DNA of 64,000 bases from Octopus vulgaris (Eukaryota), in NCBI GenBank assembly GCA_951406725.2, contig OX597825.1, positions 38,626,001 through 38,690,000 on the forward strand. The letters run 5' to 3'. Positions 3,118 to 63,340 of this stretch are shown piece after piece. The position numbers and the translations under genes are program-made. Under the pieces are notes generated by a model. It saw only the letters and a list, made by a program, of their open reading frames with translations, searched no databases and was not told the origin of the DNA. Position 1 is the stretch's first letter; each line of letters opens with the position of its first letter.

Positions 3118-3175
3118 CATAGATATGCAGTTTTCTTTCTCCGTCTTCCCTTCCTTGGACCTTTCCTTTTTCTAT

Positions 3176-3210
3176 ATTTCTGACGAAGAGCTCCGCTCGA
3201 AACGTTGAAT
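3176..3210 (+). ncRNA. minimal type I hammerhead ribozyme-like motif
   Basis: ATTT-CTGACGA-A-GAGC(TCC)GCTC-GAAA-CG-TT-GAAT: core, 4-bp stem II, palindromic AACGTT in place of stem III, weak 4-bp stem I. Confidence 0.55.
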
Positions 3211-3343
3211 CCTCTTTCTTTCTTTCCTTTCCTGAGCGTCCAATAACACTATACATGTTCCATGTCCTCGCATTGTTGCATTTTCTCATTGTTCATGTTT
3301 GTATTAATTTTCTCTCTCTCTGTCTCTGTCTCTCTCTCTCTCT

Positions 3344-12682: not shown

Positions 12683-12761
<79 letters not shown>

Positions 12762-13315
12762 GTGTGAGAGAGCAGTTCATGCCATCAAAGTGACACTAGG
12801 GTAAAATATACGAAGCCCAATATACCCATCATGACTACCCGTCTGATAAGGGTACACCAGGCACATGCATCACAACCATATGTGCGCGACATGGTGATCT
12901 CATATCAAGATAATCAGCACATGACCTTGCAGGTGGGGCCCAGTTAGAATTTTCGTCAGGTTGAGTAGCCCATCCCGCTCAAAAGGTCCTTGAATAAGGG
13001 TTATTTAAGGATGTTGAAAGAACCACCCATGTTTCCAGAGGTAAATTATTCAAACCCCAAAGAATTCCTCTCAACACATGGCTATGATGCTCTCCCACTA
13101 CTTCTGCTCGTGATCAGAGATGCACATATCGTCAGCCACTAAGGGACATGCTAAACTGATTAAGGTCAAACAACTGACAAGCAAATCTGTGGTATTGAGC
13201 AGAATATTTGCTGTAGCCCATCTTTTATACCAAGACAAAACAATGTACATGATAACACTTCCAATCAGTTAAGATCAGAAGCCATGAGAGCCACTGCCTG
13301 GTACTGCATCAGGGC

Positions 13316-27710: not shown

Positions 27711-27770
27711 GGATGATGATGATGATAATGATGATAATAATGATAATAATAATAATAATAATAATAATAA
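27514..27770. repeat. (TAA)/(TGA)n microsatellite
   Basis: Direct reading. Confidence 0.95.
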
Positions 27771-28238
27771 CAGCAAATATTCTGCTCAATACCACAGAAT
27801 TGCTTGTCAGTTGTTTGACCTTAACCAGTTGAGCATGTCCCTTAGTGGCTGACGATATGTGCATCTCTGATCACGAGCAGAAGTAGTGGGGGAGCATCAT
27901 AGCCATGTGTTGAGAGGAATTCTTTGGGGTTTGAATAATTCACCTCTGGAAACATGGGTGGTTCTTTCAACATCCTTAAATAACCCTTATTGAAGGACCT
28001 TTTGAGCGGGATGGGCTACTCAACCTGAAGAAAATTCTAACTGGGCCCCACCTGCAAGGTCATGTGCTGTTTATCTTGATATGAGATCACCATGTCGCGC
28101 ACATATGGCTGTGATGCACGTGCCTGGTGTACCCTTATCAGACGGGTAGTCATGATGGGTATATTGGGCTTCGTATATTTTACCCCAGTGTCACTTTGAT
28201 GGCATGCACTGCTCTCTCACTCAATAATAATAATAATA
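27771..28238 (+). mobile_element. non-coding (TAA)n-tailed retroposon, copy 2 (5'-truncated)
   Basis: Matches about 12762-13213 in reverse; lacks the first ~105 nt of copy 1; ends CTCTCTCACTCAA(TAA)n. Confidence 0.9.
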
Positions 28239-30132
28239 GTAAGAACACCGGGGACGTTTAACAAGTGAGAGCGATAAAATACTTCTCCGAAATCTATCCA
28301 AAACGATCTCGATTAAAGACAACAAATGCAGACTAAAATATCGGACTATATCCGAGAAAGTAATACTCATTAATATTTACTTATATTTCCGAAATGAAAG
28401 TATCTGTGTATCATGTCAATCACTCGCACATCACGTGTAAGCACGCTCGCCATATTACGATCCAATTAACATCAGACGACTTTCGTCCCCAACCACCATA
28501 CACGGAAAATAATAAATAATAAATTATATAAGTAATACCTATATTATTCAACCCAATGATATCAAACAGGAAATTCTCACCAAAACTACAAATAACTTCA
28601 CGTGTAAAACCATTTAACACCAAAAATTCACGGACCGGCACCATACGAAAATGATGACCATCAAAATAAATGTTCAGATGTTATTCCTCATGTCCCGCAA
28701 ATAAAATAAAAACCGCATAAATTGTTACGTGAGGAATATATTTCATTCCTACGCGCTTGTTTTACAGCAGTGCTCTAGCCACAGAACTAAAACACATAAA
28801 GTACATATAAAATCTGGAAGAAAGAGAACTTCGATAAAGATTTTGATACCGCACTGAACCCCTATAAACTAGTTAACATATGGAGATGTAGTCTCAAAAG
28901 AAACAAAAAAACCATCACAAAGAGAAATACAACACTTAAAAGGAAAGATGCGCCAGGTAAACGTAGATAGTAACCACGCAGCAATGGTAAAGATTTTGGA
29001 CCCGAATGTGCTCCGAAAGAGACCACTAAGACTGTTCTCGTAGATTCCTAGTGTCAATCTTAGGCCATCATCGTTCATATTCTCATTAGCACCGTAAATA
29101 AATCTTGAGTTCCTTTAATGTTGAGGATTTTATTCAGCTGCAGTAATTTTGAGGGTTTGATTTATCCTATTACATCCAGGCCAGTGCTTCACTGGAACTT
29201 AAATTTAAAGACCTAAAATTGATGACTATGATGATGATAATAATGGAGATAATATTGTTGATGATCATGGTGATGATGATGACAGATTCTATTCTCTTCC
29301 CACCGGAATACTTTCAAAGATACAATGAATTCTATTCACGTGTGAATTGAACCATTTGAGCAGTAAGAAACGAAAACGAATTATTTTTAGTTACATAAAA
29401 AATTGAAATGTATAATGATGAAATTAACTGTCATAAAAGAGTGCAAAACAGGAAAAGTCAGCATTTGCATCAATCGAGTAAAAAGAGCTGGCCCGTATTC
29501 CTAATATTTTTTCTTACAACATTTCCAAAGTTAATTTCTTACTGTTGGCTTAGATTAATGTAATTGTCAACATATTTGTTGACATTAAAGATGTATCGGG
29601 TTTTGTGGTTTGGTATATTTTCAGAGAGTTTAATGGCAGTGTTTATGCCACCAATTTAATCTGCTATATTTAATTTTTCATCATCTATTTTTGTTTTCAG
29701 TTTTTCTTTGTTTTAAAATGTTGGTGTTTCTTTTAACGGTTTTCAACAAAATTTTTTGGAGTGTCTTATAACCCTCTCCTTTGTTACCGTTTCTTTCAAG
29801 CATCTCCTCTTACCGCCGCTACAGACAGAGACATCACTTTCCTAGTAAACGGAAGTTTACCAAATAAAATATATAAAAATATCCAGAAGCAATACTGTAT
29901 TACTTTTTGTATTCCAAAATAAACGGTAAGGACACAACATTATCAAAGCATTAGAAAAAAAATTGCATGATGTAAAACGTGATGATATCACAATTTTTCC
30001 TTCATTTGCGTTATTGATATCTGCTCAAGGCAAGCAACAACAAATGTAACATCAACAACAGATGTGAAAACCAGCCACGAGAAAAGTAAGAACAACACCA
30101 ATAGAAGCAGCGACAGGAGCAACAACAAAATA

Positions 30133-47745: not shown

Positions 47746-48171
47746 ATATCTACAATAATATGTATAATAATACATGAATCTCGCAACGTCCGATTATTCA
47801 TATGATACACGAAAAACCAAATCTGTGCAAGATGTTATTGAAGACGAAGGGATTGGAATGCAATGGTGTTTTTTTTTACAAAGCTTACGGAGATTATGCA
47901 TATATATATTTTTGAAGGAACTAATGCGAAATAGGTATAGAATTAAGTCGGTAGTATTTGTGTGTTGTAGATATAACTTTCTAACAAAACAATTTCAATA
48001 ATTTATTAAATCTCAGAACGAGATGTAAACAGTAATCGCTCGAAAATGTAAAGTTTAATAACCATCTCAAGATTTAATAATGCTTGCAGTCAGTTTTTCG
48101 AAATCAGTGGCAGAAGTCACTAGAAAAACTCTTATATATTTGCAAACAGGCCTTGTCTTTCATCGAGATCC

Positions 48172-48388
48172 GGTGATTACCGCCCGTTGATAAGAGACAA
48201 TAATCTCGAAACCGCGGTCCGGTGCGTATCACTCAGGCTTACGAGAAAGGGATGGCCTCCCTTTGCAAATACCATAAGAGCACAGAAAGTGTGTCTAAAG
48301 ACAGCTGGAGACGATGATCTCCTGGGGCTAAAAAGCTACAGTAACACCCTCCTTTGTGGTTAGCCATATTCAGATGGCTATTAAACTT
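48172..48388 (+). mobile_element. ~200-bp structured repeat carrying a hammerhead motif, copy 1
   Basis: Homologous to 63104-63296 plus a 24-nt indel; several short hairpins follow the HHR. Confidence 0.85.
48181..48226 (+). ncRNA. minimal type I hammerhead ribozyme, U3-A8 variant
   Basis: CGCCCG-TTGATAA-GAGA(CAATAA)TCTC-GAAA-C(CGCG)G-TC-CGGTGCG; predicted cleavage after C48219. Confidence 0.8.
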
Positions 48389-49841
48389 TACAATATCAAT
48401 AATATTCGTAAGAATGAGAAAAATATTTGCATGATCAATTGCTGTCGTTTACATAATTCAGTGTAGTTAGTTGCCTTATGGTTGCTATGAATTTTAAAAC
48501 CCAGCAAAACTCAGTGTAACTTTTTCACGCATGAAAACAATCAGCATTGTTCTCGTGCTCACTTTTATTAATTATATTGCATAAAAACCTAAGCAGCCAT
48601 TTCTTTTTGCATTCCTAGTCTTGCAACGTTTTTGCAATGACTTTACAGGGCCAATATCGCATTAGTGGCAAAATGAGATTAACTTTGATTTTGTTTTTCA
48701 ATTAAAGCGTAACTATATTCGTTAAGAAAGAGACATTGTTTTCTCCACTGCATGAACTAAAAATTTAGGGTTATATATATCTGAGTATGCGTTTGTGAGC
48801 GTTTTTTAGGTGTGTACATACACACATACCCATAACACATATCTAAGATAACCCTCGGGAGAATTAAGGAATAGCAGACACCCGAATTTCCCAGACTAAC
48901 AAGGAAAGGTATCGTTCTTTAGGTTTAGAATAACTTCTAGAATGTTATGCATTGGCCATTCGACTAGTCTACGCACGCTATTCTAACCCGCTTTTTAAAA
49001 AAATGTATTTGAATTTAGCGCTTAATTATCAGTTGTTATTTTCAATTCCGATAATACTTAAATCTGTTGAGGAAGTGTTTGTCAGGGGGAAAAAACGCTC
49101 TTTCTTTAATCATCCTGAATTTATTAATCATAATAATTATTTCATCATTGCAAACAGCCAAGTAAACTGCTACCATCCTTAATTCAGAAAAAGGAGACAG
49201 TGATGTGATATTCCAGTTGCCTGACACTACCTGTTTAGTGTAAGTTATTGGCAGTTAAGTACGCTTGATGTTTGAATGACCTGGTGGGTTACGATTCATT
49301 TGATCCTAACAGACTTCAACAGAACAAACGCACATTTAGCGTTTAAAAGAATCTTTGATGCACATACTGGTCAGCATTTCCTTTTGTCCTTCCCAAGTGT
49401 AAAAATGAGAATGGTTTTTCGGATGAATGATCTAATAAATCATAATTGAATAGAAATATAAATAATTTGACAGCGCTTTTAAAAATAACAAAAAAGCGTT
49501 TCATTGATATCCCAAAAGGAAAAACAAATATGTATGTAAACGTGAATGCTATTCGGTTCTTTCAAAATATATTGCTAATGTTTTTCGTGTCTATATTCTG
49601 TATCGCAAATAACAAAATGTTATGTAGAATTCGAAAAATATAACGATGACGTGTACCATACACATTTAAACGCGTACATTTAATATTCTAGAAATAGGTG
49701 GCATAACGGCCACTGATACCACACACTTTTCTGTAGTTGTAGAGTTCGTATACCGGGAGAAAATACGGATGATCACAAATGAAAAGCATCTAATCATAGG
49801 TCAACTCAATCAGAGTACCCCGAGATTTATTACTAACAATA

Positions 49842-55662: not shown

Positions 55663-56241
55663 TTGGCGACGAGCTGGCAGAGTCATTAGCACGCCGGGCA
55701 AAATGCTTAACGGTATTTCGTCTGCCGTTACGTTCTGAGTTCAAATTCCGCCGAAGTCGACTTTGCCGTTCATCCTTTCGGGGTCGATAAATTAAGTACC
55801 AGTTACGCACTGGGGTTGATGTAATCGACTTAATCCGTTCATCTGTCTTTGTTTGTCCTCTCTGTGTTTAGTTCCTTGTGGGTAGTAAAGAAATAGGTAT
55901 TTCGTCTGCCGCTACGTTCTGAGTTCAAATTCCGCCGAGGTCGACGTTGCCTTTCATCCTTTCGGGATCGATTAAATAAGTAACAGTTACGCACTGGGGT
56001 CGATATAATCGACATAATCCGTTTGTCTGTCCTTGTTTGTCCTCTCTGTGTTTAGCCTCTTGTGGGTAGTAAAGAAATAGGTATTTCGTCTTTCTTCAAT
56101 TTCAGAGTTCAAATGCCGCTGGGGTCGACTTTGCCATTCATCATTTCGGGGTCGATAAATAAAATACCAGTTACGAACTGAAGTCAATGTAATCGACAAG
56201 TCCCCTTCCCGAAAATTTCAGACCTTGTGCCTATAGTAGAA
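55663..56241 (+). mobile_element. SINE family A trimer (184-bp period) with one 18-bp TSD
   Basis: GGTATTTCGTCT recurs at 55712, 55896 and 56080; flanked by AAGTATAT[A/C]GTATATCAC at 55645-55662 and 56242-56259. Confidence 0.9.
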
Positions 56242-63060: not shown

Positions 63061-63103
63061 ATATGTATAAGTATATGTATATAGCATTATTAAATCTCTG
63101 AAC

Positions 63104-63296
63104 GAGTGGTTAACGCCCGTTGACAAGAGGCAACAGCCTCGAAACTGCAGTCCGTGCGTATCACTTAGGCTTATGAGAAAGGGATGGCCTCCCTTTGCAA
63201 ATACCATAAGCTGGAGACGATGATCTCCTAGGGCTAAAAGCTACAGTAACACCCACCCTTTGGGGTTAGCCATATTGAGATGGCTATTATACTTTA
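63104..63296 (+). mobile_element. ~200-bp structured repeat carrying a hammerhead motif, copy 2
   Basis: Homologous to 48172-48388; runs into a (TA)n tract. Confidence 0.85.
63114..63158 (+). ncRNA. minimal type I hammerhead ribozyme, U3-A8 variant
   Basis: CGCCCG-TTGACAA-GAGGC(AACA)GCCTC-GAAA-C(TGCA)G-TC-CGTGCG; predicted cleavage after C63152. Confidence 0.85.

Positions 63297-63340
<44 letters not shown>

Follow-up and report, generated by a model that had tools for sequence, protein, structure and literature searches.

A probable non-LTR retrozyme family of Octopus vulgaris with variable hammerhead core pairs and palindromic stem III loops

Introduction

Two copies of a repeat lie in a stretch of Octopus vulgaris contig OX597825.1, here called the window (the whole 64,000 nt that was analysed), and the letters of the first, copy 1, resemble a hammerhead ribozyme with a U–A pair at core positions 3 and 8 and a self-complementary loop III. 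The locus raises the question of what kind of element this is, an independent retrozyme or the terminal repeat of a Penelope-like element (PLE), and whether its changed core pair and palindromic loop are under selection. The original prediction described a structured retrozyme or pLTR monomer of ~200 nt.

Both peculiarities of the motif have been published, U3–A8 and a palindromic loop III being described in the available portions of PMC4209133 and PMC3088659; in the latter (Perreault et al. 2011), U3–A8 is a natural compensatory core pair stated to be active in vitro. PLE terminal repeats carry minimal hammerheads, including some with U3–A8 (~1300 hits) in Schistosoma Cercyon, according to the available text of Cervera and De la Pena 2014 (PMC4209133). 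Mytilus galloprovincialis retrozymes consist of a type I hammerhead in a non-coding 350–390-bp repeat present in thousands of copies, and PLEs have been proposed as their partner (available text of Cervera and de la Pena 2020, PMC7229834). Vertebrate non-LTR retrozymes have been proposed to be PLE derivatives in a survey that, in the part available, names 31 vertebrates, 3 insects and 1 anthozoan (Li, Clavereau, Pollet, bioRxiv 10.64898/2026.07.22.740005). Among cephalopods, the accessible part of the giant squid genome paper gives 235 hammerhead loci, without detail (PMC6962438).

Results

The Hammerhead Motif and Its Sister Copy

Sequence, an Rfam match, alignment and folding together place a predicted type I hammerhead at 48172–48233 on the forward strand. 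Its core, UUGAUAA, has U3 at 48187 and A8 at 48192 and leads into stem II (GAGA-CAAUAA-UCUC, 48194–48207), after which come GAAA, with A15.1 at 48211, the palindromic stem III ACCGCGGU (AC-CGCG-GU, 48211–48218), whose loop III CGCG occupies 48213–48216, and C17 at 48219, with cleavage predicted after C48219 (GUC). Stem I comprises an inner helix with a bulged U (CGCCCG at 48181–48186, CGG-U-GCG at 48220–48226) and an outer helix, GTGAT/ATCAC (48173–48177 and 48228–48232). The U3–A8 core, the letters of stem III and the outer helix had all been called beforehand, and each stands where it was placed. Against the type I consensus (Y3 U4 G5 A6 N7 R8 A9, G12 A13 A14 A15.1, U16.1 H17; three helices, open at stem I), copy 1 has every core element, with U3–A8 replacing C3–G8. 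The Rfam model Hammerhead_HH9 (RF02275) matches over its whole length at 48169–48242 with 33.3 bits (E 1.6e-4), below its gathering score of 52; copy 2 was absent among the 150 of 170 Rfam matches listed.

Copy 2 has the core UUGACAA, with U3 at 63120, C17 at 63152 and stem III ACUGCAGU. Since it is likewise U3–A8, the two window copies show no covariation at the 3–8 pair. In folding predictions on isolated 63-mers, the active monomer shape of the copy 1 hammerhead has a probability of 3e-5, the best fold of two copy 1 hammerheads is a double hammerhead (−45.7 vs. 2 × −19.5, or −39.0, kcal/mol), and the best fold of copy 1 paired with copy 2 is not a double hammerhead.

Architecture in the Window

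Copy 1 covers 48003–48392, beyond the 48172–48388 to which it had been assigned, and comparison with the unit divides it into two pieces. An inverted, 5′-truncated piece on the reverse strand (48003–48073, unit positions 266–336) ends in a tail of ~47 nt and lacks the hammerhead. The forward-strand piece (48070–48392) is 323 nt of a circularly permuted 356-nt unit (positions 326–356, then 1–292), which begins in the tail, continues across the unit junction and through the ribozyme, and terminates at position 292, the common short end. The whole is flanked by a candidate target-site duplication, AT-rich and weak, whose left member (47989–48002) agrees with the right (48390–48403) at 13 of 14 letters. 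Copy 2 is made up of an inverted tail piece on the reverse strand (63083–63114) and a 5′-truncated forward piece (63106–63299) that is U3–A8, carries ACUGCAGU and a 26-nt deletion, lacks the promoter region and runs into (TA)n.

The copy 1 locus holds one ribozyme only (U3 48187), the next family copy in the window being that at 63120, and it therefore would not release a unit-length circle by itself. The two consecutive units by which Li et al., in the available text, recognise an "active" locus are not present, and under their rule the locus is a "monomer".

The window contains three further repeats or motifs. A minimal hammerhead-like motif at 3174–3215 on the forward strand (CUGACGA-A-GAGC-UCC-GCUC-GAAACGUU) is of the Penelope terminal-repeat kind and has a weak stem I; a 476-nt inverted pair (12739–13214 and 27770–28245), 97% alike and each adjoining (TTA)n, is probably a young dispersed repeat; and a 184-nt SINE-like unit stands in 2.6 tandem copies at 55712–56198.

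Family Size and Monomer

Searched with copy 1, the genome (2.8 Gb, 227 contigs) returned 2410 candidates, of which 40 were scored; at least 50 matches were found, with 87–100% identity among those listed. A tight family pattern had 342 genome matches vs. 0 in the reversed control, and a loose pattern, with Y at position 3, R at position 8 and stems II and III free, had 3173 vs. 11; these motif counts are of copies, not of independent events. Head-to-tail arrays were found as 14 adjacent pairs in dimers and trimers, with spacings of 350–360 nt in 12 and of 336–338 nt in the other two, and with the same loop in both units of 13. These arrays are pure, with no ORF between units. The predicted length of ~200 nt was thus wrong, and the retrozyme identity gains support from a monomer of 350–360 nt, a non-coding unit with a type I hammerhead within the 150–450-bp range of non-LTR retrozymes. 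At one locus, four copies are repeated together with a flanking RT fragment at a spacing of ~1380 nt, a local tandem duplication.

No RNA data set was listed as containing the repeat. Contigs of five presumed RNA runs extend over it and show a dip before the cut site, but the same dip appears in three large runs of unknown kind, probably DNA, and is therefore no evidence of cleavage or expression. The literature searched, mostly other than subscription papers and with Repbase and Dfam outside its scope, contained no description of this family.

Hairpins and Circular Folds

Three hairpins common to both copies had been proposed downstream of the ribozyme, and all are present: hairpin 1 (AAAGGGA-TGGCC-TCCCTTT, 48246–48264), hairpin 3 (GGAGA/TCTCC, 48307–48322) and hairpin 4 (TAGCCAT/ATGGCTA, 48361–48380), all on the forward strand. 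A fourth on that strand, hairpin 2 (48279–48295), was missed; it is deleted in copy 2. Across 30 diverse copies the four are 87.6–94.9% paired, hairpin 2 being the best supported (94.9%); double changes fall mainly in hairpins 2 and 3, and hairpin 4, near the short end, is mostly invariant. Hairpin 1, the weakest of the four, has one poorly kept pair and a nearly invariant 3′ strand, and in the circular folds of six monomers this strand joins the upstream region in a long rod; hairpin 1 may be an alternative state of the fold. A 225-nt stretch of copy 1 is no more stable than its shuffles (z −0.75), and all six whole monomers folded as circles are stabler than theirs (z −3.4 to −5.7, 30 shuffles each).

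Palindromic Loops and Stem Covariation

Loop III was read by hand, between GAAA and UC and in chromosome order, in the first 100 motifs listed of the 3173. It is a perfect palindrome in 81 of them, or in 89 when G·U is allowed, where chance would give 1 in 16 for a free tetramer and 1 in 4 for the short forms. Nine kinds occur among these 100 (CCCGGG, CUCGAG, CCUAGG, CUGCAG, CUAUAG, CCAUGG, CCGCGG, CCGG and CUAG). In 161 collected copies, a sample biased by its queries, 132 loops are perfect palindromes and 148 are palindromic with G·U; all nine loop types seen at least five times are self-complementary, and none of 10 noncomplementary types occurs more than twice.

The stems agree with this pattern. 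Aligning 72 of 92 representatives (69 distinct; near-duplicates and one long-branch row left out) gave pairing in 92% of cells and changes on both sides in 17 of 21 pairs; none of 500 shuffles scored as high, and slid controls reached 30–51%. Changes on both sides affect 11 of 12 pairs in stem I and three of four in stem II, the innermost being partly fixed by the pattern; the search patterns fix the outer pairs of stem III and the innermost of stem I, which are therefore uninformative. The central loop pair in this alignment takes all four Watson–Crick types (GC 28, AU 12, UA 8, CG 6).

The original prediction had allowed that CpG decay on both strands, and not selection, could give self-complementary loops, and CUGCAG and CCAUGG are indeed each two CpG transitions away from CCGCGG. 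Decay cannot, however, reach CUCGAG, CCUAGG, CCCGGG, CUAUAG or CUAG, nor does it account for the four pair types at the central position. It also predicts equal numbers of single changes from CGCG, whereas 100 motifs listed of the tight pattern have 18 UGCG, 0 CACG, 0 CGUG and 2 CGCA; and CUGCAG marks C3–G8 lineages as well, and is thus not derived from the copy 1 loop. As a general explanation, decay is refuted and its likelihood is negligible, although it could still explain single copies.

Selection on a palindromic stem III is instead supported at the level of the family by the 81 palindromes in 100 and by their nine kinds, transversions included, and sequence comparison likewise supports selection for a dimer in the family. 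Dimerization may be optional for copy 1, since efficient monomer cleavage is published for invertebrate retrozymes whose stem III has 2 bp (available text of PMC7229834), and may be strictly required chiefly in the CCGG and CUAG forms, which are short. Predicted duplex energies of UGCG (−11.9 kcal/mol with CGCG and −10.4 kcal/mol with UGCA) make it a plausible bridge between CGCG and UGCA loops.

The 3–8 Pair Across the Family

Exchanges at the 3–8 pair were reportedly the subject of work by Przybilski and Hammann in 2007. In the octopus, the 3173 motifs comprise ~1503 C–G (by subtraction), 965 U–A, 633 U·G and 72 C·A, so that the pair is Watson–Crick or wobble, and in that sense maintained, in 98%. 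The C·A count compares with 515 expected under independence, and the covariation first suggested for copy 1 is thus real family-wide; it is also looser than claimed, with U3·G8 in 633 of 3173 and one C3·A8 subfamily having spread. The count of U3·G8 is ~20 times the decay baseline given by the G5A control, which occurs in 29 of ~3200 motifs, none of them more than twice. Core pair and loop vary together across the family, which likely reflects selection for cutting as matched pairs.

Among the 72 C3·A8 motifs, 23 are identical, and 11 copies of the C3·A8 subfamily are 98.8% alike over the body and form one clade at 100/99, with tandem trimers. Six loci hold this young subfamily, with CCGG stem III and tandem trimers of 360 nt. 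Because it spread despite the broken pair, either spread does not strictly require an intact core in cis or the C3·A8 mismatch is tolerated. On a tree of the 161 copies, built with the core and stem III excluded, the four 3–8 states require 14 changes vs. 66 when shuffled; C–G copies lie on one side, and U·G and U–A swap several times. No order of core changes is claimed, as the tree is unrooted and ladder-like. Neither U3·G8 lineages nor coexisting C–G, U·G and U–A subfamilies appeared in the literature searched, mostly other than subscription papers, to which the supplement of PMC7229834 may add.

A Candidate snRNA-Type Promoter

Upstream of the ribozyme, copy 1 has on the forward strand the motif ATCAGT (48103–48108, −59), a predicted snRNA-type promoter element from its likeness to U2 snRNA genes; a TATA-like box of presumed promoter function at about −29 (48133–48139), kept across subfamilies; and a predicted transcription start, ATCG (48162–48165), 25 nt upstream of U3, which in other copies is the insertion site of a LINE. 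Octopus U2 loci have AT[CT]AGT at −57 to −61 in 18 of 20 cases and all start with ATCG, and a looser ATCAGT-like form occurs at −53 to −62 in 91 of the 104 retrozyme copies whose upstream part is intact. Judged from these sequences, the unit likely contains an snRNA-type promoter; newt satellite 2 is said to have one. A U6-type promoter was rejected: an octamer-like element near −78, present at the true-looking U6 loci, is absent from the retrozyme. The copies include sequence from upstream of the predicted start, so their template would have to be a circle or a multimer. At two of the 20 U2 loci, a LINE-like 3′ end terminating in AATAAAGAA lies directly before the first base of U2 and replaces the promoter.

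Insertion Ends and the Penelope Link

A survey of 90 loci (L001–L090) yielded 145 ends, 36 read-through and 109 true, of which 98 fall at two points ~47 nt apart, 55 at unit positions 288–300 and 43 at 330–345. (TA)n follows 44 of the 98 (25 short and 19 tailed ends). Loci with copies on two strands have one short and one tailed end in 22 of 30 cases and two tails in none, and copies neither begin nor end at the cut site. The family therefore displays 5′ truncation, an inverted 5′ piece, a tail of ~47 nt at one end and microsatellite targets, as do Penelope-mobilised insertions; for Penelope-like elements, the available text of Craig et al. (bioRxiv 2021.04.23.441226) describes partial tandems, an inverted 5′ copy, a one-end tail of 30–40 bp and microsatellite targets.

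Such ends would also fit a solo pLTR left by 5′-truncated insertions of an autonomous PLE, in which case copy 1 would be no independent retrozyme at all; PLE pLTRs do carry hammerheads, U3–A8 among them (available text of PMC4209133), and the terminal repeat of a young two-ORF PLE in this same genome contains a minimal UUGAUAA motif whose palindrome is CAUG. This origin is nonetheless improbable. The dimers and trimers of 350–360 nt are pure, head to tail and free of any ORF between units; an ORF scan of 193 loci and the window found four PLE-like fragments near copies (L037, L068, L070 and L133), and those inspected are separate from the unit, two of them following (TA)n runs; comparison with the one PLE family covered in full revealed no more than chance similarity to the unit; and the stems of the copy 1 motif are canonical, unlike those of the minimal PLE form. 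In that scan and that family, no linked RT gene was found, and the pLTR half of the original prediction gained no support.

The young PLE family itself (L264–L271; for example L265, 480–5270) is very young, with two overlapping frames of 479 and 781 aa, the latter intact in many copies. It ends in (TA)n, and its UUGAUAA motif is a hammerhead-like one with U3–A8; in L265, one of four loci with a 5′ repeat, that repeat begins at the predicted cut site. As a partner of the retrozyme this family was rejected, its terminal repeat being unrelated and sharing no sequence with the retrozyme beyond chance and separate adjoining insertions.

A LINE That Targets the Retrozyme

A 5.3-kb L1/Tx1-like LINE (zf-CCHC; Exo_endo_phos, RVT_1, zf-RVT) inserts at the predicted retrozyme start, just 5′ of the hammerhead (L163, 1690–6972; L165, L228, L230, L231 and L194–L223). 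In the best 30 of 175 candidates for its 3′ end, which include the query locus and three known beforehand, the ribozyme follows in 21 by a strict pattern; by eye, 27 continue into the retrozyme family, two into a distant hammerhead-like family and one into target letters and another element. Target duplications of ~13–16 nt flank full and truncated copies, and at L228 two LINE copies, the second of them diverged, are stacked at this site. Four loci hold a distant repeat family with a hammerhead-like core CCGAUGA (U4C) and stem III CAUG that is also a LINE target. Copy 1 is not interrupted. The LINE was rejected as the mobilising partner, as it lies within copies and is flanked there by a target duplication of its own, and the literature searched (mostly other than subscription papers) described no retrozyme-targeting LINE.

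Discussion

The present study suggests that the window element is a solo, 5′-inverted member of a non-LTR retrozyme family, in which a type I hammerhead motif sits in a non-coding repeat of ~355 nt. Enzymes of Penelope-type retrotransposons likely inserted it, using as template an RNA for which cutting by paired hammerheads and circularisation are predicted; we put the probability of this reading as a whole at roughly 80%. By the structural features tested, copy 1 belongs with the animal non-LTR retrozymes. It resembles the Mytilus galloprovincialis retrozymes in its mollusc host, similar unit and 2-bp stem III with a tetraloop; it differs from what the available text of PMC7229834 describes, a paper whose supplement may hold core variants, in that the octopus family is mostly solo and inverted and has U3–A8 and U3·G8 subfamilies and many palindromic loops. 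With the vertebrate retrozymes, as given in the accessible part of Li et al., it shares monomers, dimers and multimers, of about 300–360 bp there, and a proposed PLE origin. The Schistosoma Cercyon hammerheads, in the portion available of PMC4209133, likewise have a U3–A8 core, palindromic 15.2–16.2 and loop 3, and a dimer model, but are minimal motifs beside an RT ORF, whereas in copy 1 stems I and II are canonical and no ORF is linked. The core pair is that of the U3–A8 hammerheads of Perreault et al. 2011, whose U10.1–U11.1 mismatch recurs in relatives here; U3·G8 and C3·A8, found in the octopus family, are not mentioned in the available text of PMC3088659.

A cycle can be proposed in which the snRNA-type promoter inside the unit would drive transcription from a point 25 nt upstream of the ribozyme core. 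In a tandem transcript, two hammerheads would then share an intermolecular stem III of 8 bp and cleave after GUC, as predicted from folding and the family-wide palindromes, and the monomer would be ligated to a circle, by analogy with published retrozymes. To judge by the insertion ends, a Penelope RT/GIY-YIG enzyme would begin copying the circle at either of two fixed points, with TA-rich sequence as the target; because copying would run through the unit junction, the copies would carry their own upstream promoter. As counts and tree show, the source lineages drift among C3–G8, U3·G8 and U3–A8 cores and among palindromic loops through G·U-compatible intermediates.

The ribozyme could conversely be a passenger, spread by the promoter and Penelope enzymes from uncut multimers, its variants being neutral drift amplified by founder effects. 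The amplified U3·G8 (633) and C3·A8 (23 identical) lineages, and copy boundaries that lie away from the cut site, would fit; but G5A (29 of ~3200) was never amplified, nor was any noncomplementary loop alongside the nine palindromes, and stems I and II have compensatory changes. We consider a passenger ribozyme very unlikely, and prefer the cycle with paired cutting.

A further, speculative extension, which we regard as doubtful, is that palindromic loops form a self-recognition code: a lineage would cut only with its own loop type, wobble loops (UGCG, CUGG) and U3·G8 would be bridges for changes of loop and core, and C3·A8 lineages would be cheats, dependent on loop-matched relatives for cutting in trans. 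The predicted duplex energies agree with this idea, being −4.8 to −14.1 kcal/mol for like loops and mostly above −6.2 kcal/mol for unlike ones, with wobble-loop exceptions at −10.4 to −11.9 kcal/mol.

Copy 1 alone is ordinary, its element class, U3–A8 pair and palindromic loop all being known; the family is more useful. The sharp Penelope-type ends lend weight to the hypothesis that links retrozymes with Penelope enzymes. Moreover, one genome holds, on one backbone, lineages with C–G, U·G, U–A and even C·A at the catalytic 3–8 pair together with nine loop palindromes, and the family thus makes directly testable both the tolerance of a natural hammerhead at this pair and whether selection in animal retrozymes keeps dimer cleavage. 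If the self-recognition reading were true, the octopus genome would hold a natural record of the fitness landscape of a ribozyme active site.
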